A stretch of 31,285 nt of DNA from Geobacterales bacterium (GCA_041737975.1 JBGSQR010000500.1:1-31285), one strand, 5' to 3'; shown: positions 10,872-31,285, numbered from the stretch's first letter. Translations and numbers: made by a program. The notes: generated by a model not told the origin, from the letters alone.

Positions 10872-10973
10872 TTAAAATTAACTTCAGAGAAGGAGTTTTA
10901 TTGATAATATTTTATGCGGCGAAGTGATGTTTTTTGAGCGAGGACTCTATGATTAGTTTTTACAATCTATTTG

Positions 10974-11891
10974 TTAATCAGCTGCAAGCGCCTCATTAAT
11001 ACAGAACTCAACACAAAGCCCGCAGGCGGTGCAGTTGACGGCATCAAATTCAAATGGTGGCTGGGATTCATCGTAGTTTTCCAGCAAGGCACCGGTGGGG
11101 CAAACTTTTGTACAGGCCCGGCAGCCGTCGCAACTTTCTCCTCGTAACAAGCTACCGGCAAAAACCGCAATTAGCCGCTTTTGTTCTTCCTCCGGCTGCT
11201 TTCCCAAAACCGTTTTCAGCAAGGCTCGTCCTAACGTCAGCTGCTTCTCCGCATATACCTTGTTTTCCGGGTCTTGAACTGTTTTGGGTGATAGCAAGGT
11301 GGCCGCCTCGCTGACAATCGATCTGGTCAGGGAACGAAAAAATCCGCGCCGGTCACAGGTTTCCCCATGAAAGATCAACTGTTCCGGTGACTCGACCAAC
11401 TGGATTTTGCTGCTGATCGGCAGCTGACTACGCGCCTCGACTGTGGCCAGCTTTTCCTTGATTTTTTTTATTCTGTCATTATTTGCGCAGGCACTGCAAC
11501 CGGTCAGATTAAGGCTGATACCGGGCGTTTCGGCCAGAAACAGGGCCATTAAAATCTCTTCCGAGATGAAGGCCAGGCATGGTGTTTTCAGATGTGAATC
11601 CTGAGTGGCCTTTTGGCAGGCGATAACAATGGCGGTCTGTTGCTGCAGGACTTTCAAGAATGACGACAAGACAATATCCGGACTCAAGGCTCCGCTGGGA
11701 CAGGCCGCAGAACAGAGCTGGCAGCCAGTACAGAGATAACTGTCCAGGACCAAACCGCCGTCAAAACTTAACGCATTATTCGGACAGACATCCAGACACC
11801 GGCGACAACTGCTGGCGCTGAATCTCATCCTCAGACAACTTGACTGGGAGACCTTTGGCAGGGGCATTTTATTTCGAGAGTCTTTTTTCAT
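10974..11891 (-). CDS. Poly-4Fe-4S ferredoxin-type protein, last gene of the arr operon
   Basis: CRRCLDVCP, CTGCQLCSAACP, CDGCRACTKVCP, CTACGLCVEFC motifs; 4-bp overlap with arrD. Confidence 0.85.
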   Translation of the reverse strand: MKKDSRNKMPLPKVSQSSCLRMRFSASSCRRCLDVCPNNALSFDGGLVLDSYLCTGCQLCSAACPSGALSPDIVLSSFLKVLQQQTAIVIACQKATQDSHLKTPCLAFISEEILMALFLAETPGISLNLTGCSACANNDRIKKIKEKLATVEARSQLPISSKIQLVESPEQLIFHGETCDRRGFFRSLTRSIVSEAATLLSPKTVQDPENKVYAEKQLTLGRALLKTVLGKQPEEEQKRLIAVFAGSLLRGESCDGCRACTKVCPTGALLENYDESQPPFEFDAVNCTACGLCVEFCINEALAAD

Positions 11892-12514
11892 TCATCCTGT
11901 GTAGGTAAAGTGGTCGCAATAACAAGTTCAGTAACATCAGCCAGGGCCTGATAGAATGGACTGTCGGAATTTGCGCGCAGAGCCTCGCAGAACCTGTCAG
12001 ACCAGTGCCCCAGAAACCTTTCCCTGAAATTGACGGCCCTATCCAGCCAGAGTGAGACTTCCGCCTGATCGTCTGAAGAAGCAGCCTTTTGCAGACAGTA
12101 GGAGACAAACTCCAGTTCAACTGCGATGTGATCCGGCATTTCAGTGAATTCCGCATCCATGACCAGACCGGACTCACGGTAAAACTGCAGCACCGCCTGG
12201 GTTGACTCACCCATTACCCGCCGGTCATGCTCCAGATAAACCGAGCCGTAGGGCGGAGCCTGCAGGGACATGGGCCCCACAAACAGCCGGGCATATTCAA
12301 CTGTCAGTTCATCCATGTCAGAGCCACTCCAGGCTTCACACATTGTCCGGGCTGCCGTGGCAAGCTGTGTAGAAATACCGGTGCAAAGCAGGGTCAGATT
12401 TGATATCAGTCCGGCCTGGTTCCATTGCGGGTCAGGCTGATAGTAACATGCCGACAACAGTCGATAGGCCGCTTCTTGATCGGCAAGTTGTTTTTTTAAT
12501 TCAGAATTGGGCAT
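11888..12514 (-). CDS. arrD: TorD/DmsD-family molybdoenzyme chaperone
   Basis: EYARLFVGP...APPYGSVYL...MPDHIAVELEF motifs; position in the arr operon. Confidence 0.88.
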   Translation of the reverse strand: MPNSELKKQLADQEAAYRLLSACYYQPDPQWNQAGLISNLTLLCTGISTQLATAARTMCEAWSGSDMDELTVEYARLFVGPMSLQAPPYGSVYLEHDRRVMGESTQAVLQFYRESGLVMDAEFTEMPDHIAVELEFVSYCLQKAASSDDQAEVSLWLDRAVNFRERFLGHWSDRFCEALRANSDSPFYQALADVTELVIATTLPTQDE

Positions 12515-12533
12515 ATTGACCTTTAATAAAACA

Positions 12534-12558
12534 GGCCGGGATTATATCAACCCCGGCC
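12534..12558 (-). terminator. Hairpin between arrB and arrD (internal terminator or stabiliser)
   Basis: GGCCGGG / CCCGGCC arms followed by TGTTTTATT on the minus strand. Confidence 0.45.
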
Positions 12559-12577
12559 CGGTAATCAGCTGCAATGA

Positions 12578-13348
12578 TCAGGCTTTTTTATCGCCCTTGA
12601 AGTTGCGGATATAGTAGACATTAGGGCTGGTGCCCTCCGCTTCCTTGAGACGCATGCCTTTGTATTTCTTGAGCAGCTTGGCCGGTTCACTGGCCGGATC
12701 ATTCAAGTCACCGAAGATGCGTGCCTGTGACGGACAGGCTTCAACGCAATAAGGCATTAAACCCTGCTTGACCCTGTGATCACAGAAAATACATTTTTCT
12801 ACCACGCCTTTTCTACGGATGCTTCCATAATCAGGGTGGCTGTGCTTGTTCTGATATGGCGGCGCAGCCCCGGCCAGCCTGGAAACTTCTGCGCCGGAGG
12901 CGGTACAACCCTTTATCAACTCTGTAGAATCACGATAAAAGGCATGCGGCTCTGCACCGGAAGCGTTGTAACTGATAACGCTGTAGGCGGCCTTTTGCTT
13001 ATCCACATCCGTGGCGCTGTAGGGGCACTCCTTCTGACAGCGACGACAGCCGATGCAGCGGGCTTCATTGTGCATAGTGATGCCATCCGCAGTTTTAAAC
13101 ATCGCCTTGGGGGTCACCGGGCAGGCGTCAACACAGGGCGCATCACTGCAATGATTGCAGAGTACCGGCATGGCAGTAAAGGCTATCTCAGGGAACTGAC
13201 CCTCTTCTTTGTAGATAAAGTCAGCCCAGTTATAGGTCTGCCCTTTGTCTGCAGCCTGAGTATTATTTTCGGTTTTGCAGGCAAAGGCACAGGCACCGCA
13301 GCCGACACATTTCTGAAGATCTATGACCATTCCGTATTTTTTTGGCAT
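12578..13348 (-). CDS. arrB: Respiratory arsenate reductase Fe-S subunit
   Basis: YGMVIDLQKCVGCGACAFAC, CNHCSDAPCVDACP, CIGCRRCQKECPY, KCIFC...CVEACP; directly downstream of arrA. Confidence 0.92.
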   Translation of the reverse strand: MPKKYGMVIDLQKCVGCGACAFACKTENNTQAADKGQTYNWADFIYKEEGQFPEIAFTAMPVLCNHCSDAPCVDACPVTPKAMFKTADGITMHNEARCIGCRRCQKECPYSATDVDKQKAAYSVISYNASGAEPHAFYRDSTELIKGCTASGAEVSRLAGAAPPYQNKHSHPDYGSIRRKGVVEKCIFCDHRVKQGLMPYCVEACPSQARIFGDLNDPASEPAKLLKKYKGMRLKEAEGTSPNVYYIRNFKGDKKA

Positions 13349-13367
13349 TTAAGTTATCCCCCCTTTC

Positions 13368-15935
13368 CTAAACCTTCTCGATCTTGACGCCGGTGAAACC
13401 GCCGTTACGCGCCGTGGCGCCGCTGAGACGATCATAATCGTCAACCAGGATCTCATTGTTATTGCCGCCGCGCGGAGCTGCCTTGGCGTAGTCTTTGGCT
13501 GCAACCCTGCCGTAGGCCCAATGTCCCTGACCGTAGCATTTTGCAGCAGTTCCGGGACGAACACCTTCCCAGAGCTTGACCTTGGTAACAATCGACCCGG
13601 TAGTAGAGGAAATTCTCACGGTATCGCCGGTTTTCAGACCCAGTTTTTTACCGTCAATCGGGTTGATCTTGACCACATCTTCCCAGGGCTCATCGCCAAT
13701 ATCGACCTTTTTGAACTCCTGGTACCAGGTCAGGTTGGCACTGCGGCCTTCGCGATTCAGACGGGATTTGTAATCGATAAAGGTAAATGGATATTCTTTT
13801 TCGCTGCCGTGACGCTTGGGTGATTCGTAATGCGGTACAAAGGCCAGCTCGCCTTTGGCTTCGTAACCACTGACCTTTAGAATATCATCCACCGTGGTGT
13901 TATGCTTCTTGGCGTGTTCTTCCAGCGCCTTCTTCATTGTCAGGCTGTAGAACTCAAATTTCTTGGATTCTGTTTTGAACTTGCCCTCGAACTTCTTGGT
14001 TTCAGGATTATCCTTGCCCCAGTTTTTCTTGTAGGCATAGGTCTCCGAATTATAGATCCCTTTCTTGCGGAATTCGGCCCAACTGGACAGCTTGTCGCCC
14101 TTCAGTTTTTCCTTGCCGTTCCAGACCTTCTGAGAAGAGATCCTGGCGGCAATTTCCGTAAATTCGGCAGCATTGGCAGGCTTCTTCTTTGTCTCCGGAT
14201 CCTCGAATGAGGCGTAGTAGTCATACAGATTGGCAAATCCACGGGCCTTTAATTTTTCAGCCAGCAGCCACATCACCTCTACCTCTTCAGACTTCACATC
14301 CCAAAGTTTTTTGCCGACCGGCTGCTGTATTGACATATGCCCGTGCAGGTTGGCCATGTTGGAGATGATGGATAACTTCTCCGTCGGCGCGAAAGTGGCT
14401 GGCAATACGATATCGGCAAACTGGGTCATCTCCGAGGCATTGGTGACCATGTGGACAAAGAAGGGGATCTTTGCCATTGCTTTGTCCCAGCGCTGGGCGC
14501 CGGTACAGGAGAAGTTGAAGTTGCTCCAACTGCTGATGAATACTTTGATGGCTCCCGGATTTTTCAGCAATCCATTGGCAACATTGTTGGTAACAACGCC
14601 GCTGCCCGGTTTGCCGCCCATCATGGCCGGCATGTCCTTGGCGCCGCGTCCGTCGAGTTTTTTGCCCTTGCCGGATTTCTTGGCCAGCTCATCCAGAAAA
14701 TTATCCTTGATTTCTGGAAACTTGGTGGTCGGGACGCTGGAACTCTGGAATACGCCACCCGGTGTTTCGATGGAGCCCAGCAGTCCGTTCAACGCATATA
14801 CCGCCATGGAAGCATAGGTACCGCGCGGGCTCATGCCCACACCCGGCCCCATCCAGACTGCGCAGGCGCTGCCGGCCTTACCCATGCTGCGGGCAACACG
14901 AATGATCTGCTCCTCCGGAATCAGGGTTTTACCCTCTGCCCAGGCCGGTGTTTTATCCTTAATCTCCAGGTTCCACCACTTGATTACGCCGTGGGTCTGC
15001 TTCTCCACAAAAGCGGCTTCATCAACGGTTTGTCCGGTTTTGAACAGATTTTTGCCTTCCTTGAAATCGCCGACAAAATCTCTGCTCCACATGCCTTCGG
15101 TCATGATCACATGGGCAATGGCCGCTGCCAGGGCACCGTCTTCACCCGGCTTAATCGGCAGCCATTCATGGGCCTTGGCTGCTGAGGCGTTAAAACGCGG
15201 ATCAACGGCAATGACTGTCCCCTGGTCAATCACATTACTGAACTTGGCGATGGCATTCGGCACCTGGCGGTTGGAGGAAAGCGGATCACAGCCCCATATA
15301 ACCAGGCATTTTGTCTTGGCCAGGTCGTAGTCGCGATATCCGAAGAAACCCTGGGTATAGCCCGGCCCCATCTTCTCGGCTTCGGCACAGATGGCACTGT
15401 GTGAAAAGTAGTTTGGTGTGCCGAATATTTTTGGGAGGGTTCCATAGAGCAAATCAGTGGCAGTCGATGAGTAGCGTCCACGCATGTACATCAGCTTTTC
15501 CGGCTCATTGGCCTTGCGCAGCTCCATCATTTTATCGGCAACCATGTCCAGCGCCTCGTCCCAGGATATGGGCACAAACTTGGGATCGATGCCGCGCCCT
15601 TTGAGAGGATTGGTTCGCTTCATCGGCACTTTGATGCGGTCAGGATCATAGGCCTGCTGGATCATCAGGTGTCCGCGCGGACAACAGTAGCCTCCGTTTG
15701 CTTTGGAAAGCTGGTTACCGCGAACTTTAACCACCCGGCCTTCCTGCACCAGGAATTCTACCGGGCACCAGGCGGTACAGCCCTGGCAGGTCGATGGAAT
15801 CCAACTACCAGCCGGCGAGGTCTGGTTTGCAACCGCCTTATCAGCTGCAAAGGCATTCAGCCTGGGCAGGCCGACTGTTGCCATGGCACCAACAGCAGCA
15901 GTAACTTTCAGAAAATCTCTGCGTTTGATCTTCAT
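13368..15935 (-). CDS. arrA: Respiratory arsenate reductase molybdopterin catalytic subunit
   Basis: Tat signal KRRDFLK; CQGCTAWC...CPRG Fe-S motif; RGRY and SHSAICAE motifs characteristic of ArrA. Confidence 0.96.
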   Translation of the reverse strand: MKIKRRDFLKVTAAVGAMATVGLPRLNAFAADKAVANQTSPAGSWIPSTCQGCTAWCPVEFLVQEGRVVKVRGNQLSKANGGYCCPRGHLMIQQAYDPDRIKVPMKRTNPLKGRGIDPKFVPISWDEALDMVADKMMELRKANEPEKLMYMRGRYSSTATDLLYGTLPKIFGTPNYFSHSAICAEAEKMGPGYTQGFFGYRDYDLAKTKCLVIWGCDPLSSNRQVPNAIAKFSNVIDQGTVIAVDPRFNASAAKAHEWLPIKPGEDGALAAAIAHVIMTEGMWSRDFVGDFKEGKNLFKTGQTVDEAAFVEKQTHGVIKWWNLEIKDKTPAWAEGKTLIPEEQIIRVARSMGKAGSACAVWMGPGVGMSPRGTYASMAVYALNGLLGSIETPGGVFQSSSVPTTKFPEIKDNFLDELAKKSGKGKKLDGRGAKDMPAMMGGKPGSGVVTNNVANGLLKNPGAIKVFISSWSNFNFSCTGAQRWDKAMAKIPFFVHMVTNASEMTQFADIVLPATFAPTEKLSIISNMANLHGHMSIQQPVGKKLWDVKSEEVEVMWLLAEKLKARGFANLYDYYASFEDPETKKKPANAAEFTEIAARISSQKVWNGKEKLKGDKLSSWAEFRKKGIYNSETYAYKKNWGKDNPETKKFEGKFKTESKKFEFYSLTMKKALEEHAKKHNTTVDDILKVSGYEAKGELAFVPHYESPKRHGSEKEYPFTFIDYKSRLNREGRSANLTWYQEFKKVDIGDEPWEDVVKINPIDGKKLGLKTGDTVRISSTTGSIVTKVKLWEGVRPGTAAKCYGQGHWAYGRVAAKDYAKAAPRGGNNNEILVDDYDRLSGATARNGGFTGVKIEKV

Positions 15936-16016
15936 TCCGTTTCCCTCCTTACCTTTTGTGATACCGAGAAAACAACCATTGTTAAAAGATGTTTGAATTA
16001 TTAAACCAGCGTTCTA

Positions 16017-16047
16017 ATCTATATATCCGCTTTTCAGGATAAATCAA
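16017..16047 (-). promoter_or_regulatory. Degenerate copy of the acr3 operator upstream of arrA
   Basis: Minus strand TTGATTTATCCTG-AAAA-GCGGATATATAGAT versus TTGAATGTATCCGC-CAAA-GCGGATACATTCAA at 20293-20324. Confidence 0.6.
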
Positions 16048-16166
16048 GGGTTTAATAAAGTATTTCAGTCAACATTTTTTTGAGTTTATCCCACTAACCG
16101 CACCACCTATTTAGTACCTCAGAGGTATACTTATGATATTGCGAAGAAAATATTCAATTAGAACGC

Positions 16167-16211
16167 TTGACAACGGCCAGCACCAAGACTATATGATTAT
16201 ATAATCATATA
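16167..16211 (+). promoter_or_regulatory. Promoter of first arsR with a perfect 22-bp palindromic operator
   Basis: TTGACA at 16167-16172; TATATGATTATATAATCATATA at 16190-16211 covers the -10 region. Confidence 0.75.
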
Positions 16212-20376: not shown

Positions 20377-21426
20377 ATGAGCGAACATATTTCCCATAAA
20401 CTATCCTTCCTTGACCGCTGGCTGACACTCTGGATCTTTGCCGCCATGGCTCTGGGAGTAGGCCTCGGATATCTGGTGCCCGGCACGGAAAACTTTATCA
20501 ATTCCTTCCAGGTTGGCACAACCAATATCCCGATTGCCATCGGACTGATAGTGATGATGTATCCACCTTTTGCCAAGGTAAAATACGAGGATATGCCGGA
20601 GGTCTTTCGCAACAGGAAAATTCTTGGGCTGTCACTGATCCAGAACTGGATTATTGGGCCGGTACTGATGTTTGCACTGGCGGCACTGCTGCTGCCGGAC
20701 AAGCCGGATTACCTGGTTGGTCTGATCATGATCGGCCTGGCCCGTTGCATCGCCATGGTGATTGTCTGGAATGAACTGGCCAAAGGCAATACGGAATACG
20801 CGGCCGGACTGGTTGCCTTCAACAGCATCTTTCAGGTCCTGTTTTACAGCGTCTATGCCTGGTTTTTTATTACCGTACTGCCGCCGCTGGTCGGACTGCA
20901 GGGAATGGTGGTGGATGTGAGTATCGGCCAGATTGCCGAGAGCGTGTTCATCTACCTGGGAATTCCCTGTATTGCCGGAGCCTTGACCCGACTGATCGGC
21001 GTCAAGGTTATGGGCAAGGAGCGCTACCACAGGGAATTTGTGCCGAAGATCAGTCCGCTAACCCTGATCGCACTGCTGTTCACCATCGTGGTCATGTTCA
21101 GCCTGAAAGGCAACCTGATCGTGCAGCTACCAATGGATGTGCTGCGCATCGCCATCCCGCTGCTGATCTATTTTGTGGTCATGTTCCTGGTCTCTTTCTG
21201 GATGGGCAAAAGGGTGGGGGCAGATTACTCCAAAACAACAACACTGGCCTTTACGGCCGCCAGCAACAACTTTGAACTGGCCATTGCCGTTGCCATTGCC
21301 GTCTTCGGTATCAATTCCGGCGCCGCCTTTGCAGCTGTCATCGGACCGCTGGTAGAAGTGCCGGTGATGATCGGCCTGGTCAATGTGGCTTTCTGGTTTA
21401 AAAAGAGGATGTTTGATGCTGCATAA
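20377..21426 (+). CDS. acr3: Acr3 arsenite efflux transporter
   Basis: GGAG RBS before ATG 20377; [47 protein letters not shown] motifs. Confidence 0.96.
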
Positions 21427-21454
21427 AGCATTCTTGATTTAAGTTTACACTTAA

Positions 21455-21482
21455 AAGCCCCGTCCATTTTTGAACGGGGCTT
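21455..21482. terminator. Terminator between convergent acr3 and FlgT-like gene
   Basis: AAGCCCCGT / ACGGGGCTT arms with A and T tracts on the flanks. Confidence 0.75.
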
Positions 21483-21511
21483 CTTGTTATACTTTTAAAG
21501 GAGATTAACAA

Positions 21512-22690
21512 TCAATTCCCCTGAAACTTAACCCTGATACTATTCCCCCGTGCTTCCACAACCTGCAGCTTGCTCTTACCCACACTCAAACCATGGATCA
21601 GCTGAGCCAGTCGTGCCGTATTGCAATTCTGCCAGCCGACCGCAAGTTCCATGCGGCCTTGCAGGTAGCTCTTCTGATTGACTCTGCTGACCCCCTTGAC
21701 CCCCTCCATCAGCGCGCTTCTCAGCTCATCGGCACTGCTGAACGGAACCCCTTCAAGGATCAGCACAATTTCATGCTCGTTATAGCAGGCATCCAGCCAA
21801 CCTTTGATGATACTGGAGGCGATATTGTCACCCAGCTTTTCCGCCGCCTTTTGGGCTGCTTTCTGCGTCCCCAGACTGTAGCTCTGGTGAGGCAAACTGG
21901 CGTCTGCCGAGGCCGAGGCCAGCATACGTCCGGTAACATTCTCAAAAACTTTGGCGGTCAAAAAGGCGCTATAGCTATGAATTCGTTCATTGTAGGGAGA
22001 AGAGCCGTTATCCTGAACCACCGCCTGACCGGCTATGACCACCTGGGAAAGAAAGGAGGCTTCTTCAAGAGCCTTACCGGTTTTATTGCCGGTGGCTTCC
22101 ATCAATGAAGACTGACGCAACCGCTCAGCCATGAGGGCCGAGACCTCGGCAACCCGAAATCCCTTTTTCACCAACCGGGCCGTAATAGTCTGTTCAACCG
22201 TATCCAGATTGAGAGAGACAGACTTCTGATCCTTATCCAGTGACTTCTGGGTAAAGGAGACAACCACTGTGGGATAGTTCATCTGGGGCAGAACATGGGC
22301 CAGGGCCGCCACATCATCCGCCAGGGCCATACGCTCAACCTGGGCCTTAATTTTAACGACACAACTGCTGTCCTGGCAGGATTTATCCAGAATTTCATGC
22401 TTTTTCACATATCCTTCAACTTTGGCAAGTATCCGGTCATGAATCAATTCGTTCTGCTCCACCAAGGTCTCGCTGCTGATCAGCGTACCCAGCACCTGTC
22501 CGACCACAGTCCGCTGTGCATCGCGAAGCGCATCATTCAGTGCAGCTTCACGCCCCTTGCCTTCCATAGCCGCCGTCCCCGTACCTTCCACCCAGCTGTC
22601 GTCTGTTTGGGCAGATACGGCCAAAGGCAGGAACAGCATGATCATGAACAGAAAGGCGAACGTCCTGGAAAACAATTGATTAAATGACAT
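21512..22690 (-). CDS. Exported FlgT-like (FlgT_N/LPP20-type N-terminus) envelope protein
   Basis: Signal peptide ending AVSA; VEGTGTAA...AALNDALRDA...GTLISSETLVEQ...KVEGYVKKHEIL pattern; middle alpha/beta domain. Confidence 0.7.
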   Translation of the reverse strand: MSFNQLFSRTFAFLFMIMLFLPLAVSAQTDDSWVEGTGTAAMEGKGREAALNDALRDAQRTVVGQVLGTLISSETLVEQNELIHDRILAKVEGYVKKHEILDKSCQDSSCVVKIKAQVERMALADDVAALAHVLPQMNYPTVVVSFTQKSLDKDQKSVSLNLDTVEQTITARLVKKGFRVAEVSALMAERLRQSSLMEATGNKTGKALEEASFLSQVVIAGQAVVQDNGSSPYNERIHSYSAFLTAKVFENVTGRMLASASADASLPHQSYSLGTQKAAQKAAEKLGDNIASSIIKGWLDACYNEHEIVLILEGVPFSSADELRSALMEGVKGVSRVNQKSYLQGRMELAVGWQNCNTARLAQLIHGLSVGKSKLQVVEARGNSIRVKFQGN

Positions 22691-22705
22691 GAACAGCCCC
22701 CTTTT

Positions 22706-22825
22706 TCCAGTTCCAAATCAAAGATGAAACCAAGGCGGCGAGGACTAAGGCGACGAGGCGTACACGCAGTACGTTAAGGAGCCGAAGACGAGCCAACGAA
22801 GGTAGCGCTTTGATTTGGAATTGGA
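22706..22825. repeat. 120-bp palindromic intergenic element (REP/MITE-like)
   Basis: 18-bp terminal inverted repeats with one mismatch (TCCAGTTCCAAATCAAAG / CTTTGATTTGGAATTGGA), internal AAGGCG(G/A)CGAGG duplication and CGTAC-acgca-GTACG hairpin. Confidence 0.65.
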
Positions 22826-22826
22826 C

Positions 22827-23936
22827 CTAAAACTGTGCCATCGTGCCGATATACACTAGGTCTGAACGATAGTTAGTCATGCCCAGCACCTTCTTGTAAC
22901 CAAGGCTGAAGGACCATGTATCGCTCAAATTGGTGCGATACTCGGTTCCCAGTTCATAGTAATTAACATCATCAGGCATGGATGTGTAACTGGTCACATC
23001 ACAGGTCAGGCTGCTGAAAGCGCTCAAAACATTGTCAGGTGTAATGCGGTAACCACCGTTAAGGCCCATTTTCAGCAGGTGCTGACTGTTGTCCGTCGAG
23101 ACATCATCGCTGCGGTTGTACTGATATGAGATACCGCTGCCGAGCTCATATTTCTCTTTCATATAGCGCAGGGATGTGCTGAAACCACCACCGTAAGTGT
23201 GCAGATTATCACTGGCAGCACCACCAATAGAATTCAGCTGGGTAAACAGGTAGTTCATGTTCCCGGTCAGGGACACTTCCCAGTTGGTCGCAGGCTGCAG
23301 ATGGTACTGGCCAAAAGCGACCAGACCGGCCCGATTTCCTTCCAGCTCGCCGATGTTTAGCCGGTCGTAAGGGAGCATGACACCAAAGGTGTATTTATCC
23401 TTATCGTAGGCCAGACCCAGGTTTAAACCGTAGATAGTACCACTGCTGTCGTTGGATTTGACAAACTCACCGCGCAGCATGGCGCCAAAAGTGCGGACCG
23501 CTCCATCAGCTTTCTTCTGGCTTTCCATGCGAAGTTCGGTGGTTGTTTTGACCGACGTCAGCACCAGATTTTCATAAACCAGCCGTGAGGTAACCTGCGA
23601 CGGAGAGTTTGGATTGGACAGACTGCCCAGGGCAATACTGCCGGCAATAACGTTATAAATGGCATCAAAGGCCTGGGCGGCGTTCAGATTAGGTATAGGC
23701 AGACCACCATTAATTGTAATTTCTGCAATTGCTGTCCCTGGAATAAACCAAGAGATGGACTGGCCGTTGACAACATCGGTAAACGACGTACCAAAAGAAC
23801 CGCTAATAGCGTTGTTTACATAGCCCTGCAGAGCAGATTTGGTGTTAAAATTGTAGGTAGCCGACCACCCCAGGGCAGGACTCAACAATAACAGTAAAAA
23901 TCCCAGACAGATGTAACGTGCGGCATAGTTTTTCAT
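22827..23936 (-). CDS. Outer-membrane beta-barrel protein with short N-terminal domain (autotransporter-barrel-like)
   Basis: AAAGGA RBS before ATG 23936; signal peptide; alternating amphipathic strands over the last ~230 aa; C-terminal YIGTMAQF Phe signal. Confidence 0.75.
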   Translation of the reverse strand: MKNYAARYICLGFLLLLLSPALGWSATYNFNTKSALQGYVNNAISGSFGTSFTDVVNGQSISWFIPGTAIAEITINGGLPIPNLNAAQAFDAIYNVIAGSIALGSLSNPNSPSQVTSRLVYENLVLTSVKTTTELRMESQKKADGAVRTFGAMLRGEFVKSNDSSGTIYGLNLGLAYDKDKYTFGVMLPYDRLNIGELEGNRAGLVAFGQYHLQPATNWEVSLTGNMNYLFTQLNSIGGAASDNLHTYGGGFSTSLRYMKEKYELGSGISYQYNRSDDVSTDNSQHLLKMGLNGGYRITPDNVLSAFSSLTCDVTSYTSMPDDVNYYELGTEYRTNLSDTWSFSLGYKKVLGMTNYRSDLVYIGTMAQF

Positions 23937-24011
23937 AACAGTTCCTTTCTTAAATGTAATTCCATTTCCCAATCAATGCTTCTCATTATTGACCGGAAAC
24001 GGATTAAAATG

Positions 24012-24635
24012 TTAACGCAACCTCTTCACCAATCCAATCACTGCGGCCTTGATAGCCTGATCGGAAGCCTCCCCGATATCGCGACCGCGCCCCACACCGC
24101 TGGCCGGGATATATTCCAGGGTTTCCACATCCACGCAGCGAAGCTGTATTCCTACCCTGGTGGTTAATTCCTTACGGGCCGACAATCCCGTAACCTGCTC
24201 GCCCCCCTGGGCATAGTCATAAACCTCACCGTAAACAACCTTTTTCGCCCCCAGAATCCGGCCCATTTCTACCGCAGAGGACTGCTCAACCATACCCGCT
24301 GAGCTCATCCACTGCCGGTCAAGGGCATCCTTGATCACTTCCGGCTTTTCCTCTACCAGCCGGAAACGGTTGGAGTCAAACAGATTGTCAACCACACGAT
24401 TATGAACTCCCAACCCCACATCCTTTGCAAGCAGGTGCGGATAGGCTTTGGCTGCCCGCTCTGAAAGGCCGAGTGGTAGAACAGCCACAACCACTTTTGG
24501 CCCTTCATATTTAGGCAGCTTGTTAATATCCGTAATAAGCCCTGCTTTGGGCGGCTCATCCACATATGTGGTTGCACAGCCTGCCACAAGAAGCAGCATC
24601 AGAGCGACTGTCAGTAAAGTATTTATTGTTTTCAC
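24012..24635 (-). CDS. CsgG/HfaB-family lipoprotein
   Basis: GTG start overlapping upstream TGA; lipobox VAGC; NRFRLVE...AVEMGRILGAKKVVYGEV...VGIQLRCVDVETLE pattern. Confidence 0.8.
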   Translation of the reverse strand: MKTINTLLTVALMLLLVAGCATTYVDEPPKAGLITDINKLPKYEGPKVVVAVLPLGLSERAAKAYPHLLAKDVGLGVHNRVVDNLFDSNRFRLVEEKPEVIKDALDRQWMSSAGMVEQSSAVEMGRILGAKKVVYGEVYDYAQGGEQVTGLSARKELTTRVGIQLRCVDVETLEYIPASGVGRGRDIGEASDQAIKAAVIGLVKRLR

Positions 24636-25252
24636 TGATCTTCCTTTTTTTCGAACATTTTTTTGATCGCCTGCCGGACAGCATCCTGAGTTGCCAGACC
24701 TACGCTGGTCTTGTCAAAATGAATCTTATCGTTGCGAACCTCAAAAAGTATACCTCGCGCCTTGGTGGTTGCAGTTGAACTACCCATGGAGGTCAGCGCT
24801 ATTCGCTCACCTTCCTGCAGGGTCACCTCAACATCCATCTCAATATTCACATTGGAACCGGAAAACGGCCCTGCGAAACCCCTCATCCTGGATTTGCTGA
24901 ACCGCTTTACCCTGGCATAGGCGATTGCCTCACACCCCAACTGCTTTCTGATGGCAGTGGAATCAACCTGCTTCCTGTCTGTTACGGACAAGGTCATCAA
25001 ATCACTAATACGCTTGGTAATTTCCGGATTATCCTCCACAGGCACAAAACGACCTGTGTCATAGAATTCCTGGGCAACAAGACTGGCTATCCCCTGGGCA
25101 ATCAGCAGATTATTGAACTCTGGTTCCTCGGTCTCATTACTTACCGAGACGATCGCCAACCTGCCAGGCGACCCGGCATAGGCCGGAAAGCTGCCGCAGG
25201 CAAGCATTGCCAAAAATAGCAAAACCGGAACGATTCTAACCTTCATCAACAT
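24632..25252 (-). CDS. Exported CsgG/TolB-N-like fold protein
   Basis: GGAG RBS before ATG 25252; signal peptide; LAIVSVSNET...GIASLVAQEFYDTGRFVPVE pattern. Confidence 0.65.
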   Translation of the reverse strand: MLMKVRIVPVLLFLAMLACGSFPAYAGSPGRLAIVSVSNETEEPEFNNLLIAQGIASLVAQEFYDTGRFVPVEDNPEITKRISDLMTLSVTDRKQVDSTAIRKQLGCEAIAYARVKRFSKSRMRGFAGPFSGSNVNIEMDVEVTLQEGERIALTSMGSSTATTKARGILFEVRNDKIHFDKTSVGLATQDAVRQAIKKMFEKKEDQ

Positions 25253-25449
25253 GGTGATTCTCCACAATCTGTTTATACCGGCAACGCACCTGATATAGTT
25301 CCTAATTGCATAATAAAAAACGAAAACTTATGTGCTTTTTGCTTCTGACATTACCGCAATAAAGCATACCGGCACAATTGCAGTATTGCAAGCTTCCAAT
25401 ACTGCTGAATTTACGAAAAATTTGGTATTTAATACCACACAAATATATA

Positions 25450-25490
25450 AAACAAAACACCCTGCTCTAAACGGGCAGGGTGTTTTGTTT
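25450..25490 (-). terminator. Terminator of the nap-onr operon
   Basis: 16-bp perfect arms AAACAAAACACCCTGC / GCAGGGTGTTTTGTTT. Confidence 0.82.
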
Positions 25491-25511
25491 GCAGAAGCTA
25501 TGTAAGTAAAA

Positions 25512-27143
25512 CTACTTTTTTGCAGCGCCCTCTCTAGCCACTCTCATGGCGTCATTCAGGATCTTGACACCTGCCTTTGAGGCTGTGATGGAACCGGTCA
25601 GACTTTCTCTTGCCAACTCCGGATTATGAAAACCGTCCGAGTTCTCGGCAGTCCAATATTCCCACAGGGCATGGCCTTCTTCATGCTTGAGGCGGGCCTG
25701 TGCCAGTACGGATTCAACTACTCCAAGACGCTGGGCGGCGGCATAGGTATCGATCAACTGACCCAGCCAGTATTCAGCCTTGCGCATCTTGCCCTTGGTG
25801 TAGTTCTGAATGGCATCAATCTGGTAGGACTTCTGCGCTACTGACGACTTTGGATGACAGGTCAGACAGGATTCCTTGACTGTCAGCTTGGGACGTGTAA
25901 CACCGTGGGTTGAAAACATCTTGCCGTTTTTGCCCTTCTGTTGCGGCATGTGGCACTGGTGACACTGGACACCAGCCTTGTCGTGAACACTTCCCGCATA
26001 GGTCTCTGCCTCGGGATGCTGGAACTTGATCAGACGTGCGCCGGTAACAGCATGCTTGAAGTCGTAGAAATCGATACTCTGATAGTACTTGAACAACTGC
26101 AGTGAATTCTTGAGCGGAAACAGATTGGTGCGGCGGTCATCAAACTTGACCGGTTTGCCGTCACTCTGTTGTGTTCCTGGATTACAATTGTATTCCACAT
26201 GGCATTGGGCACACATCATACGTGAATCGGTCTTCTCCATTACGCCGATCTTGCGGAATCCGTCACGGAAGGAAACGACCTTCAGATCGGTTTTGCCGCT
26301 CTTGGCAAAAATATTGCCGGACGGATCTTTGGAAATGGCGTCAATCAAAGCATCACGGACAACACGCGGCTGTGTGCCGTGCGGATCATGACAATGAATA
26401 CAGCCAACCGCATTATTGGTTGCCTTGGCAACATCAACAACATTGGAACCACGATCAAACTTGGCCTTGGGATCTTTATCACCCATGTACTTCATATTCA
26501 GGATATGATCGGAAGTTTTGCACTGGATACAGGTTGCATTACCGGCCATGGCGGTCTGCTGCATTTTTTTGCCAGTATCAACCAGCACATCCCAGGTTTT
26601 ACCGTTTTTATCGATACCATTCCAGCCATCCTTAAACTGGAAGCGGCCACCCTGAAAACGATCAACCACGAACTGATCTGTCACCATGTAGGCATGGCCG
26701 CGAGGCTCGGCATGTTCAAATGTAAAACCATGACCATCCAGCAGCTTGTCCTGCATTGGTGACCGGCCAGTCGGCATCCCTTTGTCTTTACGGGCAGCGG
26801 CATCATAATGGATCTTATAGAAGCTGTCATACTGGTCCTTGTGACACTTACCGCAAAGCGCCTGATCGATAATAGTAACCGGCTTGTACTTTTCCGGGTC
26901 GTTCATGTGGTCAACTGTTTTGTCATGACAGACCTTGCAGGAAATTGAGGCATGCTTCGACCCCTCCTTCATGGCCTTGACCTCGTCGTGACAGGAATAA
27001 CATTGCGCCCGTCCGTCATCGACCTTCTTGGCAGCCGTCTTTGTTGCCGGTTTGGCTTTGGCAGCCGTGGTCATGGCGGGAATTGACAGCACAGCCACCG
27101 CACCAGCCATTGCTGCAACCAGAGCCAGTTTTTTCTTCAGCAT
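25512..27143 (-). CDS. Octaheme cytochrome c nitrite reductase (ONR, TvNiR-type)
   Basis: Signal peptide; heme motifs CYSCH, CKVCH, CGKCH, CIQCK (catalytic), CIHCH, CAQCH, CHQCH, CLTCH; VEYNC and QHPE active-site motifs. Confidence 0.9.
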   Translation of the reverse strand: MLKKKLALVAAMAGAVAVLSIPAMTTAAKAKPATKTAAKKVDDGRAQCYSCHDEVKAMKEGSKHASISCKVCHDKTVDHMNDPEKYKPVTIIDQALCGKCHKDQYDSFYKIHYDAAARKDKGMPTGRSPMQDKLLDGHGFTFEHAEPRGHAYMVTDQFVVDRFQGGRFQFKDGWNGIDKNGKTWDVLVDTGKKMQQTAMAGNATCIQCKTSDHILNMKYMGDKDPKAKFDRGSNVVDVAKATNNAVGCIHCHDPHGTQPRVVRDALIDAISKDPSGNIFAKSGKTDLKVVSFRDGFRKIGVMEKTDSRMMCAQCHVEYNCNPGTQQSDGKPVKFDDRRTNLFPLKNSLQLFKYYQSIDFYDFKHAVTGARLIKFQHPEAETYAGSVHDKAGVQCHQCHMPQQKGKNGKMFSTHGVTRPKLTVKESCLTCHPKSSVAQKSYQIDAIQNYTKGKMRKAEYWLGQLIDTYAAAQRLGVVESVLAQARLKHEEGHALWEYWTAENSDGFHNPELARESLTGSITASKAGVKILNDAMRVAREGAAKK

Positions 27144-27167
27144 AATTTTTCTCCTTTCATGATTAAA

Positions 27168-27539
27168 TTACTTCCCCGAATCAATTTTTGGTCGCACCCG
27201 CAGCCTGACCGCCTTTGGTGACACCGGGCAGATATACTCGCAGGTACCGCAACCGTTACACATCTTTTCATCAATTCTGATTCCTTCGCCCATAACCACC
27301 AGAATTGCCTGGGCTTCGCACTGCTCAACGCAACTGAAACAACCGGAGTTTTTGGCCAGGCAGTGCTGATTATCGGCAACAGCCACCATATCCTCATCCG
27401 GTGCCGGGACAAAATTCTCATCCAATTGCTGCGAAGGCTCGTTAACAGACTGGTTAGTAAGCACATCCTTGGCCGACAGAATGGCTTCACCGAGTGAAAA
27501 GAGGCTTTTCCTGAAAAAATCTTTGCGGCTTATTTCCAT
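27168..27539 (-). CDS. NapF/NapG-like 4Fe-4S ferredoxin
   Basis: SRKDFFRKSL N-terminus; CLAKNSGCFSCVEQC and CNGCGTCEYICP. Confidence 0.8.
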   Translation of the reverse strand: MEISRKDFFRKSLFSLGEAILSAKDVLTNQSVNEPSQQLDENFVPAPDEDMVAVADNQHCLAKNSGCFSCVEQCEAQAILVVMGEGIRIDEKMCNGCGTCEYICPVSPKAVRLRVRPKIDSGK

Positions 27540-27553
27540 AATTATCTCTTGTT

Positions 27554-27832
27554 CTATTTTTTTATTTCACCCTGAACATGACACTGCACACAATCCAGCC
27601 GTTGCGGGTGGGAAGTTTCCGGAGCTTTGTTCAAACCTTTTTCGTGACAGGCCAGACAACTTTTGCCCGTGTCGCCTTCTTTCATCCTGTGCGGTACGGT
27701 TGGCGGATCACCGCCGGTCTTGGCGGCATCGGCAGCATAGTTGACAGGCGTTTCATCCGCGTTTGCCAGTAAAGGTAAGACTAAAGCCGCAGACAAACAT
27801 AAAACGGTCAGTAATCGGATAATACTTCTCAT
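27554..27832 (-). CDS. napB: Very small diheme c cytochrome, NapB-like
   Basis: Signal peptide; PPTVPH, CLACH, SHP, CVQCH layout; directly after napA. Confidence 0.8.
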   Translation of the reverse strand: MRSIIRLLTVLCLSAALVLPLLANADETPVNYAADAAKTGGDPPTVPHRMKEGDTGKSCLACHEKGLNKAPETSHPQRLDCVQCHVQGEIKK

Positions 27833-27881
27833 CTATATAACCTCCGGAATCAATTTTTAGGTCAAAAAAACCATTGGAGCA

Positions 27882-30212
27882 CTAAACTTTCTGAATTTTA
27901 ATAGCGCACTTTTTAAAGTCAGGCTCTTTGGAAATCGGGCAAAATGCATCAATACACAACTCATTGATCATCTTGGTTTCATCAAAGAAAGCCACAAAAG
28001 TACTGCCCTTTTCCGGCTTGCCCCGACCATTCAGTTCAGCTGTCATGACAATTGAACCTCGACGCGAACTGACCCTGACCTGGTCCCGACTCTTGATGCC
28101 AAGTTTTTTGGCATCTTCCGGATGAATCTCGATAACCGCCTCAGGCATGGCCCGCTTCAACTCCGGCACTCGGCCGGTCATGGTAGCGGTATGCCAATGC
28201 TCCAGCAGACGTCCGGTACAAAGCCAGAGGGGGTATTCCATGTCCGGAGATTCAGCTGGCGGCTCATAGGGTCGGAACCAGATACTGGCCTTTTTGTTGG
28301 GCGCTTTATAAAATTCAACACCGACGCCTTTGGTTACTTTTGGATCATGCCCCTCGGCGTAACGCCAGCGTGTTTCCTTGCCGTTGATGACCGGCCAGCG
28401 CAGACCGCGCACCTTGTAATAGGTTTCATAGGGCGCCAGGTCCTTACCGGTGCCGATGGTAAACTGGCGGTATTCTTCAAACATCTCTTTATCAAAGTGT
28501 TTGTATGGGAATAGACCACCGTGACCGAGACGCTTGGCCAGTTCTATCAACTGCCAGGTGTCATTTTTAGCCTGCCCCGGCGGCTCAACCATCTTGAACC
28601 AGTGCTGGGTGCGGCGCTCCGTATTTCCGAAAACCCCTTCCTTCTCTACCCAGCTTGCAGAAGGCAGAATCACATCAGCCATTTCCGTACTTCGCGTCGG
28701 ATAAATATCAGACACAACAATAAAGGCATCATTTTTTTTCGCGTAAGTACCTGGCTTGTCGCCCGCTTTGCGGTAGCGATTCAGATTCGGCAGGGACTGA
28801 TAGGGGTTAGTGCATTGAATCCAGATACATTTGATATCACCACGGTCAACGGCCCGAAACATTTCAGTGGCATGGGGACCGGGCTTAGGGGAAATCCGTC
28901 CAGCCGGAATACCCCAGATTTTTTCCGTAATTTCCCTGTGTTTAGGATTCATAACCACCATATCGGCAGGCAGGCGATGCCCAAAGGTGCCAACTTCGCG
29001 GGCCGTACCACAGGCCGAAGGCTGGCCGGTCAGCGACAGCGGATTTTCACCCGGTCGACCGATTTTGCCGGTCAGCAAGTGCAGGTTGTAAAGCAGGTTA
29101 TTAACCCAGGTGCCGCGTACATGCTGATTGACACCCATGGTCCAGAGCGAGTTGATCTTGCGTGTTTTATCGCCATAGATATGGGCCAGTTCAACCAGTT
29201 TTTTAGCCGGAATGCCGCAGATTTTTTCAGCCCACTCAGGCGTTAACGGTTTCATCAACTCTTTGTATTGCTCGAATGTCAGCGGCTTGGCAACATCATC
29301 AAAGGATTCTTTATCCTTCAACCCGTACGGCGCATTCTCGGTCCCGCGCTTAAAGACCGTATTCTTGTCAATAAAGGCCTGGTCATAGAGTTTATCTCGC
29401 AGAATCACATGAATAATGGCATTTATCGCAGCCAGATCTCCATGCGGCTTGAACGGGATATACTCATCGGCCTGCTGGGATGTGCGCGTCCAGCGAGTGC
29501 CCAGATCAATGATTTTGACATTGGGGTGTTTCAGCCGGTTATCAATCATACGGGAATAGAGAACCGGATGGGCCTCTGCCATATTGGCGCCCCACAAAAT
29601 ATAGGTATCACCCAGATCCAGGTCGTCATAACACCCCATGGGCTCATCAGAACCAAACGTATTCATGAAAGCGCCCACGGCTGAAGCCATGCAGAGACGG
29701 GCATTCGGATCCACGTTGTTGGTGCCGATACCGCCCTTGAACAGCTTGACAGCCGTATAACCTTCCAGAACAGTCCACTGGCCGGAACCATACATGGCAA
29801 CGGAATTCGGACCATTTTTGGCAATGGAATCCTTGAATTTGGAAGCGATCAGGTCAAGCGCCTCATCCCAGGAAGCGGGCACCATTTTGCCGTTTTTACG
29901 AATCAGCGGAGTTGTCAGACGATCCTTGCCATACAATGCCTTGGAAAGAAAATAACCCTTGACGCAGTTGAGCCCCCGGTTAACCGGACCGGCAGGGTCA
30001 CCCTTGGTAGCAACAATTTTGCCCCCTTTGACACCGACCAGCACACTACATCCAACTCCGCAGTAACGACAGGGAGCCTTATCCCACTTGATCCCATCAT
30101 CAGCCGCCTCGGCAATACCGGCTTTAAGTGGATTTAAAGCCGATGCACCGACAGCTGCAAATGCTGTTGCTGCTGCACTGGCCTTGAGAAAATCACGTCT
30201 TGTCACTCCCAT
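27882..30212 (-). CDS. napA: Periplasmic nitrate reductase catalytic subunit
   Basis: Tat signal TRRDFLK; CRYCGVGC...NCVKG; PNARLCMASA; GQPSACGTAREVG; KEPDFKKCA. Confidence 0.96.
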   Translation of the reverse strand: MGVTRRDFLKASAAATAFAAVGASALNPLKAGIAEAADDGIKWDKAPCRYCGVGCSVLVGVKGGKIVATKGDPAGPVNRGLNCVKGYFLSKALYGKDRLTTPLIRKNGKMVPASWDEALDLIASKFKDSIAKNGPNSVAMYGSGQWTVLEGYTAVKLFKGGIGTNNVDPNARLCMASAVGAFMNTFGSDEPMGCYDDLDLGDTYILWGANMAEAHPVLYSRMIDNRLKHPNVKIIDLGTRWTRTSQQADEYIPFKPHGDLAAINAIIHVILRDKLYDQAFIDKNTVFKRGTENAPYGLKDKESFDDVAKPLTFEQYKELMKPLTPEWAEKICGIPAKKLVELAHIYGDKTRKINSLWTMGVNQHVRGTWVNNLLYNLHLLTGKIGRPGENPLSLTGQPSACGTAREVGTFGHRLPADMVVMNPKHREITEKIWGIPAGRISPKPGPHATEMFRAVDRGDIKCIWIQCTNPYQSLPNLNRYRKAGDKPGTYAKKNDAFIVVSDIYPTRSTEMADVILPSASWVEKEGVFGNTERRTQHWFKMVEPPGQAKNDTWQLIELAKRLGHGGLFPYKHFDKEMFEEYRQFTIGTGKDLAPYETYYKVRGLRWPVINGKETRWRYAEGHDPKVTKGVGVEFYKAPNKKASIWFRPYEPPAESPDMEYPLWLCTGRLLEHWHTATMTGRVPELKRAMPEAVIEIHPEDAKKLGIKSRDQVRVSSRRGSIVMTAELNGRGKPEKGSTFVAFFDETKMINELCIDAFCPISKEPDFKKCAIKIQKV

Positions 30213-30289
30213 AAAACTCCTCCCCTAAAGTGGAATAATTCAAAATAAAAACCATGCAAAAATGCCATGGTTTTCGGGCAGCAAAAGCT

Positions 30290-30523
30290 TCATGTATCCT
30301 CAAAATAATGGCAGGCCAATCTAACCGAAACAACGCCTTCGATTTCATGCAACTGTTCCACCAGCGCAACCTCGCCATTTACTGTATCAGCCTCAACAAC
30401 TGCAATGATCTGTGAGTCCGGCAATACGCCATGCACTTCAATGCCGTCAAGCAGAGCGGCCTTTTCTGCAACTTCATCCGCCTTCCCTTCAAGGCAGGAC
30501 AGGACAATTCCGGAAACAGGCAT
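30290..30523 (-). CDS. napD: NapA chaperone
   Basis: MPVSGIVL...GIEVH...IIAVVEAD...IEGVVSVRLACHY; precedes napA. Confidence 0.88.
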   Translation of the reverse strand: MPVSGIVLSCLEGKADEVAEKAALLDGIEVHGVLPDSQIIAVVEADTVNGEVALVEQLHEIEGVVSVRLACHYFEDT

Positions 30524-30614
30524 ATTTCACACTCCTCAAACCATAAGCATAATACTAAAGCAAACTAATACAAGCTAAGTAAATAGGGGAACAAATGAAG
30601 AACTAATTTTAATT

Positions 30615-30630
30615 TGCAACGTTTGGACCA
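30615..30630 (-). promoter_or_regulatory. Sigma54 (-24/-12) promoter of the nap-onr operon
   Basis: Minus strand TGGTCC-AAACG-TTGCA, exact GG-N10-GC spacing, 92 bp before napD. Confidence 0.72.
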
Positions 30631-30758
30631 AAAAATGGGAGGAAAATTGAGTGCCGTAGAAACAGGCACTTAGTGAGGGATTACTATGTAAAATCTGGCT
30701 GACCTGGCAACATCAGTAGCAAAACAGTTACGCAACAACCAATTCAATGTTACCAATT

Positions 30759-31285
30759 CTACACATCTTCAAGCTGTTTCAATTTCTGCCAAAGAGTTTT
30801 TCTGGAAATGTTCAGCAATTTGGCTGCATCAGCCTTATGCCCGCCAGTCTTAGCCAGAGCATCCAGGATTAGCTGTCTTTCAAAATCAACTACGGAATCT
30901 GACAGCGGTCGATGATTTTCCCCATAATGCCCATTACTCTCCGGGACAAAGGATTGATCTGTCCGCGCCGCCAGAAAGCAGTCCGGCAAATCCTGTGGAT
31001 TCAGAACTGTTCCGGTGCAGAGTACCAAGGCCCGCTCAATAGAGTGTTCCAGCTCACGCACATTGCCCGGATAGTCATAAGAAACAAGAACGCTGATGGC
31101 TGAATCACTAAGCTCCAGCAAGGGGCGCTCCATTTTCTCCGCAAACTTGCGAATAAAAAATTCCGTCAACGGCAGGATATCATCTCGCCTGTCCCTGAGA
31201 GACGGGACATTGATGGCGATCACATTCAGGCGATAATAAAGGTCTTCCCGAAACTGCCCGCTAGCCACCAGGCTATGAAGATTCT
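30759..31285 (-). CDS. Sigma54-dependent transcriptional activator (NtrC/Fis family), 5'-truncated by the window edge
   Basis: NLHSLVASGQFREDLYYRLNV, YDYPGNVRELEH, C-terminal AAKLLNISRKTLWQKL HTH. Confidence 0.93.
   Translation of the reverse strand, partial: NLHSLVASGQFREDLYYRLNVIAINVPSLRDRRDDILPLTEFFIRKFAEKMERPLLELSDSAISVLVSYDYPGNVRELEHSIERALVLCTGTVLNPQDLPDCFLAARTDQSFVPESNGHYGENHRPLSDSVVDFERQLILDALAKTGGHKADAAKLLNISRKTLWQKLKQLEDV

Follow-up and report, generated by a model that had tools for sequence, protein, structure and literature searches.

The obligate ammonifier Trichlorobacter ammonificans G1 reportedly employs TaNiR, an octaheme nitrite reductase (ONR), as its dissimilatory enzyme, and NapGH is reported to be the electron supplier. 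A 'Nap-TaNiR complex' of this organism is described in papers citing Sorokin et al. (2023, ISME J 17:1639), and PMC12142623 cites TaNiR as a nitrite reductase whose ammonifying activity has been proven biochemically. In T. lovleyi SZ, Glov_1055-1061 encode NapD, NapA, NapG, NapH, NapB, a 4Fe-4S ferredoxin annotated 'NapF?' and ONR, and the published model has NapGH feeding electrons to the module (PMC11972089 supplement); all seven genes are induced under the dissimilatory reduction of nitrate to ammonium (DNRA), with tabulated fold-change values of 5.3 to 5.8 (PMC11972089). Here we describe a related operon of five genes, napD-napA-napB-ferredoxin-onr, in a stretch of 31,285 nucleotides from a Geobacterales bacterium (GCA_041737975.1 JBGSQR010000500.1:1-31285), hereafter referred to as the window. 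The module itself is known (Nap-TaNiR, described in 2023), and only the missing napG and napH set the window copy apart; what appears to be new is a recurrent architecture devoid of napGH, here under predicted sigma54 control.

The window constitutes an entire contig (C27, 31.3 kb) of a metagenome-assembled genome (MAG) of 3.64 Mb in 637 contigs, which is 89% complete, and the related loci place its host in the Geobacteraceae. The nearest relative, an uncultured Geobacteraceae MAG represented by locus L010, shares 97% protein identity in both ONR and NapA and 86% DNA identity over the shared region. Our reading, which we hold to be very probable, is that the sigma54-dependent operon encodes the periplasmic Nap-TaNiR module for DNRA in a minority architecture that has lost napGH, and that its electrons would be delivered by quinol oxidoreductases that are not dedicated to it. 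An earlier note on this DNA had proposed the same five genes behind one -24/-12 promoter and an adjacent sigma54 activator, had seen no napC, napGH or nrfH among them, and had called the whole a compact DNRA module. All five genes were recovered where the note had placed them, on the minus strand, together with the promoter element and a fragment of the activator, and the identities of the genes, the type of ONR and the precedents of Nap-TaNiR and Glov_1055-1061 are in keeping with the function proposed. The features of the locus are the following:

31283..30759, minus strand: sigma54-dependent activator, C-terminal 174 aa, cut by the contig end (Pfam AAA_lid_14 86 bits, HTH_8 58 bits, C-terminal end of Sigma54_activat)
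30630..30615, minus strand: predicted -24/-12 sigma54 promoter element TGGTCC-AAACG-TTGCA (TGGTCCAAACGTTGCA), 107 nt upstream of napD
30523..30290, minus strand: napD, NapA chaperone, 77 aa (Pfam NapD 63.5 bits, full length)
30212..27882, minus strand: napA, catalytic subunit of periplasmic nitrate reductase, 776 aa (twin-arginine translocation (Tat) signal; NCBIfam NF010055 1073 bits, cut-off 904; TIGR01706 1036 bits, cut-off 931)
27832..27554, minus strand: napB-like short diheme cytochrome c, 92 aa (Sec signal; CLACH and CVQCH)
27539..27168, minus strand: small 2x[4Fe-4S] ferredoxin, 123 aa (eight Cys; N-terminal S-R-K-[DE]-F-F)
27143..25512, minus strand: ONR of the TaNiR/TvNiR type, 543 aa (PDB 8rv0, E 1e-253; seven CxxCH and CIQCK)
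25490..25441, minus strand: intrinsic terminator with a 16-bp stem, a 9-nt loop and a U-rich tail (-30.3 kcal/mol, z -5.9; 0 of 200 shuffles folded as well)

The product of the last gene is a member of the octaheme TvNiR/TaNiR family and not a pentaheme NrfA. Residues 44-536 aligned with PDB entries 8rv0, 8rvm and 8rxu ('octaheme cytochrome c nitrite reductase'; 846 bits for 8rv0) and residues 45-534 with TvNiR (2ot4/2zo5; 513 bits, E 1e-152), whereas the structures of pentaheme NrfA matched the C-terminal catalytic part only (residues 203-532; E 1e-31 to 1e-22, best 111 bits). The protein hence groups with ONR and not with NrfA, the latter being the outcome that the note had named as fatal to its proposal. 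The exact motifs that had been pointed out were also found, namely seven CxxCH (residues 48, 69, 97, 248, 311, 394 and 426), one CxxCK (CIQCK, 205-209) and, within CHVEYNC at 314-320, the EYNC that stands where NrfA of E. coli has EYYF. The CHVEYNC motif is identical in the window ONR, TvNiR and 8rv0. Six residues, R148, K209, E317, Y318, C320 and H376, are invariant in 48 ONR orthologues, and their counterparts in TvNiR belong to the catalytic set, the calcium site and the crosslink, with R148, Y318 and H376 aligning with the catalytic ones; at the level of sequence, the Tyr-x-Cys motif formed by Y318 and C320 is compatible with a Tyr-Cys crosslink. The protein also possesses the N-terminal triheme extension that is absent from NrfA, and Pfam Cytochrome_C7 was detected there at residues 64-106, marking this extension as c7-like. 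Preceding it, residues 1-43 comprise a hydrophobic segment followed by a Lys/Ala-rich linker with conserved Pro residues, and the solved TaNiR chain begins at the residue that aligns with G44. From its close similarity to the characterised TaNiR, we infer that the enzyme carries out the six-electron reduction of nitrite to ammonium.

Eight hemes, scores below the cut-offs of the curated models and the lack of an nrfH partner in the operon and the assembled genome all separate this protein from pentaheme NrfA. The earlier note had warned that surveys relying on nrfA could misclassify such a locus, which holds for the NCBIfam NrfA equivalog models, since their scores are far below cut-off (120 versus 595 for NF008339 and 105 versus 693 for TIGR03152), but not for Pfam Cytochrom_C552, which still matches at 209 bits. 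No other protein of the Cytochrom_C552 family was found in the window's genome.

With respect to the nitrate reductase, NapA displays the Pfam domains TAT_signal, Molybdop_Fe4S4, Molybdopterin and Molydop_binding; taken together, the equivalog scores and Tat signal of NapA, its Fe4S4 Cys motif, the presence of NapD and a diheme NapB (the last recognised at the profile level only) identify the system as NapAB with NapD. As a single sequence, the 92-aa cytochrome remained under the Pfam NapB cut-off (18 versus 25 bits). A profile of 12 orthologues had as its top three PDB matches the NapB chains 1ogy_B, 3ml1_B and 1jni_A (E 9e-5 to 2e-4), and because these best matches are three solved NapB proteins, the cytochrome was assigned, with moderate support, as a probable shortened NapB. 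A PPxIPH motif is common to it and the solved NapB chains, and its gene occupies the position of Glov_1059 'NapB'.

The five genes are separated by gaps of 77, 49, 14 and 24 nt, and the operon with its promoter and terminator spans 30630..25441 on the minus strand. The short gaps, one promoter and one terminator support its prediction as a single sigma54-type transcription unit. The terminator hairpin starts 22 nt past the ONR stop codon; a consensus scan missed it because the 9-nt loop exceeds the 8-nt limit of the scan, and it was detected by folding. Since this hairpin would close the transcription unit, the envelope genes downstream are considered separate. At the other end, TGGTCCAAACGTTGCA fits the sigma54 consensus TGGCAC-N5-TTGCW, a GG-N10-GC element, at nine of 11 positions, and it is kept in L010 although the sequence just downstream diverges. 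Across the related loci, a site with at least nine of the 11 consensus positions, at most 300 nt from the first gene, was present in all eight loci with an adjacent co-directional activator versus 3 of the 36 without one. Position and conservation in relatives therefore support the predicted promoter, and rpoN is encoded in the window's genome (448 bits, above cut-off). The activator fragment comprises the end of an AAA+ domain, the lid and a Fis-type helix-turn-helix (HTH), and it matches sigma54 regulators of NCBIfam at 1e-40; its orthologue in L010 (L010:5015-6388) is full-length, with 457 aa arranged as PAS-AAA+-HTH (Sigma54_activat 240 bits). A second -24/-12 match, TGGTGGAACAGTTGCA at 30348-30363, lies inside napD and also occurs in L010, which we attribute to probable coding constraint rather than to a promoter. 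In addition, a perfect inverted repeat, AGTGCC-N9-GGCACT, was observed at 30650-30670, approximately 20 nt upstream of the -24 element; one base differs in L010, and the repeat may be a regulator binding site.

To place the locus among its relatives, 80 of 282 related loci were sampled, using as queries the window proteins and the NapG and NapH of locus L024. Sixty loci had 5.9 kb or more of sequence upstream, and their architectures were distributed as follows:

14 of 60 loci: napD-A-G-H-B-ferredoxin-ONR
5 of 60 loci: napD-A-B-ferredoxin-ONR
7 of 60 loci: narGHJI-narK-narK-PAS-ferredoxin-ONR
12 of 60 loci: ferredoxin-ONR only
22 of 60 loci: no ferredoxin and no nitrate reductase nearby

A further locus with less upstream sequence (L078) and the window itself raise the number of napGH-less loci to seven. 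Stated for the nap-linked ONR loci of Geobacteraceae, approximately 16 have napGH and six do not among the 80 sampled, so that, with the window added, 7 of about 23 are without it. The nar-linked relatives (L017, L034, L035, L044, L049, L064 and L067) carry narGHJI, two narK and a gene for a small PAS protein ahead of ferredoxin-ONR, and no nap genes. The T. ammonificans locus was not recognised by peptide matching among the 80 sampled loci, the nearest being L068.

In most relatives napG and napH are situated between napA and napB, where the window has a gap of just 49 nt; searches of the window with hidden Markov models (HMM) and proteins found no napC, napG, napH or nrfH in the operon, in agreement with the note. 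When 21 NapA sequences were placed in an unrooted tree, loci without napGH were interspersed with those that bear it, and the well-supported branches demand four changes or more; the unrooted ONR tree demands a minimum of three. As the majority carry napGH in one and the same position, repeated loss within the family explains this most simply, and we consider that napGH has probably been lost several times. The napD-A-B-ferredoxin-ONR architecture is retained by at least four further lineages of the NapA tree. What is left of the operon appears to be under strong purifying selection, as evidenced by the 97% protein identity of NapA and ONR between the window and L010 against the 86% identity of the DNA. 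Several losses of napGH, together with purifying selection on the rest, argue that the module would work without NapGH, that is, that NapGH is dispensable for the Nap-ONR module.

The next point is the entry of electrons. The earlier note had left the route open, and no dedicated quinol dehydrogenase was found in the operon or the genome. In the 89%-complete assembly, tblastn and HMM searches detected no nrfH, nrfA, napG, napH or small NapC. Five napGH-less genomes, one of them a closed 4.2-Mb chromosome (OW818669.1, locus L053), yielded no NapH or NapG above the family cut-off and no NapC or CymA; their only NapC/NirT-family proteins are ImcH-like (516-527 aa), save for nrfH in L010. A hidden quinol dehydrogenase downstream of ONR was considered for the napGH-less relatives and rejected, given that the genes there are only B12/UroD-like, Pqi/Mla or chemotaxis genes and none is an electron-transfer gene. 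The absence of a quinol dehydrogenase thus holds for the operon; for the genome it holds within the limits of an assembly of this completeness.

Given that NapGH, NapC and NrfH were all missing from the assembly, the general machinery of Geobacter is the most likely source of electrons. In the mechanism that we propose, NapAB, with NapA matured by NapD and exported through the Tat pathway, would reduce nitrate to nitrite, and ONR would reduce nitrite to ammonium. Electrons would leave menaquinol via non-dedicated quinol:cytochrome c oxidoreductases of the Geobacter type (ImcH-like), and c7-type cytochromes of the periplasm would hand them on to NapB and to the N-terminal triheme domain of ONR, itself c7-like. 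ImcH oxidises menaquinol and reduces PpcA (bioRxiv 10.1101/2023.05.03.539133), and proteins of the small CymA/NapC/NrfH kind are uncommon among Geobacterales (PMC11492766). An ImcH-like protein is encoded in the window's genome (contig C466, locus L002:553-2076); it has 507 aa, seven hemes and a NapC/NirT domain, and its gene is flanked by those of multiheme cytochromes, among them a c7-type dodecaheme protein with four domains. The arr operon on the same contig as the nap-onr genes likewise has no membrane anchor, which fits a shared periplasmic pool. This arrA-arrB-chaperone-polyferredoxin segment (window 10886-16190) is absent at the matching place in L010 (20131 to 20166), indicating an insertion or a deletion, and its ArrA-like protein scored 1023 bits, below the equivalog cut-off of 1600 bits.

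Several points weigh against our interpretation of the operon and should be read together. The -24/-12 pattern by itself is not rarer than chance (two matches in the window versus 2.2 expected), which is why the co-occurrence across loci described above was used as the test. All seven napGH-less loci come from MAGs, and with an assembly of 637 contigs and 89% completeness, a quinol dehydrogenase could sit in the missing sequence. In L010, the next genes after ONR are nrfH (154 aa) and a pentaheme nrfA (482 aa) (L010:11895-13837); the window's lineage may thus descend from an ancestor that depended on NrfH, and the window copy could be impaired. Finally, the proposed electron route is drawn from gene presence and from knowledge of G. 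sulfurreducens only, and relatives with napGH likewise possess the ImcH-like gene and a NapH-NapG-like fusion, so that neither is a specific replacement.

The alternative that survives best, though we judge it unlikely, makes the small ferredoxin the true entry point: exported or membrane-associated by way of S-R-K-D-F-F, it would take up electrons from a NapH-like protein of the membrane and hand them to ONR, perhaps also to NapB, which would render NapGH redundant. Much about this gene speaks for a close tie to ONR. It lies directly upstream of ONR in 43 of the 69 loci for which 1 kb or more of upstream sequence was available, and is the gene most often paired with ONR; the pairing extends to nar-linked loci and to loci without a nearby nitrate reductase, and in some relatives the ferredoxin stop codon overlaps the ONR start. 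In 24 orthologues, R5, K6 and F8 of the N-terminal motif are invariant, as are the eight Cys, which are arranged as C-x6-C-x2-C-x3-C and C-x2-C-x2-C-x3-CP. Judged by this conservation, the ferredoxin appears to be a conserved, ONR-linked partner. Its identity is otherwise generic: a database search returned 561 related clusters with generic names only, and a PDB profile search gave generic polyferredoxin matches only. By position it corresponds to Glov_1060 'NapF?', and the gene for the pentaheme NrfA-2 in a nar cluster of T. lovleyi is likewise preceded by one for a 4Fe-4S ferredoxin (PMC11972089 supplement).

The export step is where this alternative falters. The NapG proteins of relatives have a canonical TRRRFLK signal followed by a hydrophobic stretch, whereas the ferredoxin has R-K in 24 of 24 sequences and never R-R, charged residues come next, and there is no conserved A-x-A cleavage site; we hence rejected it as a Tat-exported, NapG-like ferredoxin. 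A similar motif also occurs in the middle of the arr-linked polyferredoxin (window 10977-11891, 305 aa), where a signal peptide is impossible: its internal D-R-R-G-F-F-R-S-L aligns with the N-terminal S-R-K-D-F-F-R-K-S-L of the ferredoxin, and the two proteins matched in BLASTP at E 5e-6. In the T. lovleyi study, the orthologue was interpreted by its authors as a NapF-like maturation factor residing in the cytoplasm (PMC11972089 supplement).

As membrane partners, this alternative would call on NapH-like and NapG-like paralogues, which are present in all genomes examined. The candidates are a NapH-NapG-like fusion (520-544 aa in relatives; C559:2-1249, locus L003, in the window's genome) and a stand-alone protein of approximately 335-366 aa with Fer4_5 domains. 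The fusion, however, is not specific, occurring as it does in 8 of 10 genomes that keep napGH, where it is paired with a Tat-DUF362 gene; both paralogues were accordingly rejected as specific replacements of NapGH. An internal segment of RR plus hydrophobic residues lies between the two halves of the fusion, and its gene adjoins that of the Tat-signal DUF362 protein; the fusion is conserved in 13 of 15 relatives examined, with or without napGH.

That a dedicated quinol dehydrogenase (napGH, napC/cymA or nrfH) is hidden in the unassembled part of the genome, roughly 10%, is quite improbable in our estimation. The fragmented state of the assembly and the nrfH of the closest relative favor this idea, but tblastn and HMM searches of what was assembled found none, and four other napGH-less genomes, the closed 4.2-Mb chromosome among them, are also without one. 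Moreover, at the point where L010 has nrfH-nrfA, the window carries an unrelated 4.1-kb cassette of four envelope/lipoprotein genes (25498..21416) and is collinear with L010 on both sides; nrfH is therefore absent from that position and has not been lost in an assembly gap.

We attach equally little probability to the view that the module is a device for detoxification or redox balancing (of nitrite, hydroxylamine or sulfite, or of excess reductant) instead of respiratory DNRA, for which an efficient quinol link would not be needed. Nap often serves redox balancing, the physiological role of ONR has long been debated (PMC10949509), and no energy-conserving entry point is encoded here. On the other hand, TaNiR is reported as the dissimilatory enzyme of an obligate ammonifier, the orthologous T. 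lovleyi cluster is strongly induced in DNRA growth (PMC11972089), and the ONR is the sole Cytochrom_C552-family member in the window's genome. Lastly, a decaying, non-functional remnant, left after the loss of napGH and, in this lineage, of nrfHA, would fit the two losses of genes, one after the other, by which the lineage differs from other members of the family, but it is extremely improbable in the face of five intact reading frames with conserved cofactor motifs, 97% protein versus 86% DNA identity with L010, a conserved promoter and an architecture kept in at least four other lineages.

A Nap-TaNiR module that would function without NapGH bears on how electron flow in DNRA is understood. 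Whether the nitrogen of soils, sediments and wastewater is retained as ammonium or escapes as gas is partly a matter of DNRA, and there is growing recognition of the Geobacteraceae as ammonifiers. In the 2023-2025 model, the task of delivering electrons falls to NapGH, and at least four natural losses of napGH would offer both a comparative and a genetic handle on the entry of electrons into Nap and ONR. We tentatively suggest, as a possibility about which we retain considerable doubt, that in several lineages of Geobacteraceae Nap-ONR shares the ImcH/Cbc-type quinol oxidases and the periplasmic c7 pool of extracellular electron transfer, and that the R-K ferredoxin, not NapGH, is the conserved specific partner of ONR; were this true, the published electron-flow model would need revision. 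The locus also suggests that a Nap-ONR module can fall under the control of sigma54 and a PAS-containing activator, as predicted from sequence, and the position of its ONR below the thresholds of curated NrfA equivalog models matters for gene-centred surveys of DNRA.

When compared with the known systems, the locus stands nearest to the Nap-TaNiR genes of T. ammonificans (TaNiR structures 8rv0, 8rvm and 8rxu) and to Glov_1055-1061 of T. lovleyi, with which it shares the order napD, napA, ..., napB, ferredoxin, ONR; these clusters contain napG and napH (Glov_1057 and Glov_1058 in T. lovleyi), unlike the window's assembled genome, which lacks both. TvNiR of Thioalkalivibrio nitratireducens resembles the window ONR in its eight hemes, N-terminal triheme extension, CxxCK, Arg/Tyr/His set and CHVEYNC motif, but it is gammaproteobacterial and farther in sequence than TaNiR, and it is not known to be encoded in a nap operon. 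NrfHA performs the same reaction with the same catalytic core (residues 203-532 of the window ONR), yet it has five hemes, EYYF in the E. coli NrfA and NrfH as a partner, in contrast to the eight hemes, EYNC and absence of NrfH in the window. As for the supply of electrons, the napDAGHB system of Shewanella oneidensis has no NapC of its own and is fed by CymA. Although Shewanella keeps napGH and CymA, whereas the window's genome has neither and offers only ImcH-like or other Geobacter-type candidates, the two would be alike in operating a periplasmic nitrate reductase that relies on a non-dedicated membrane quinol oxidase.

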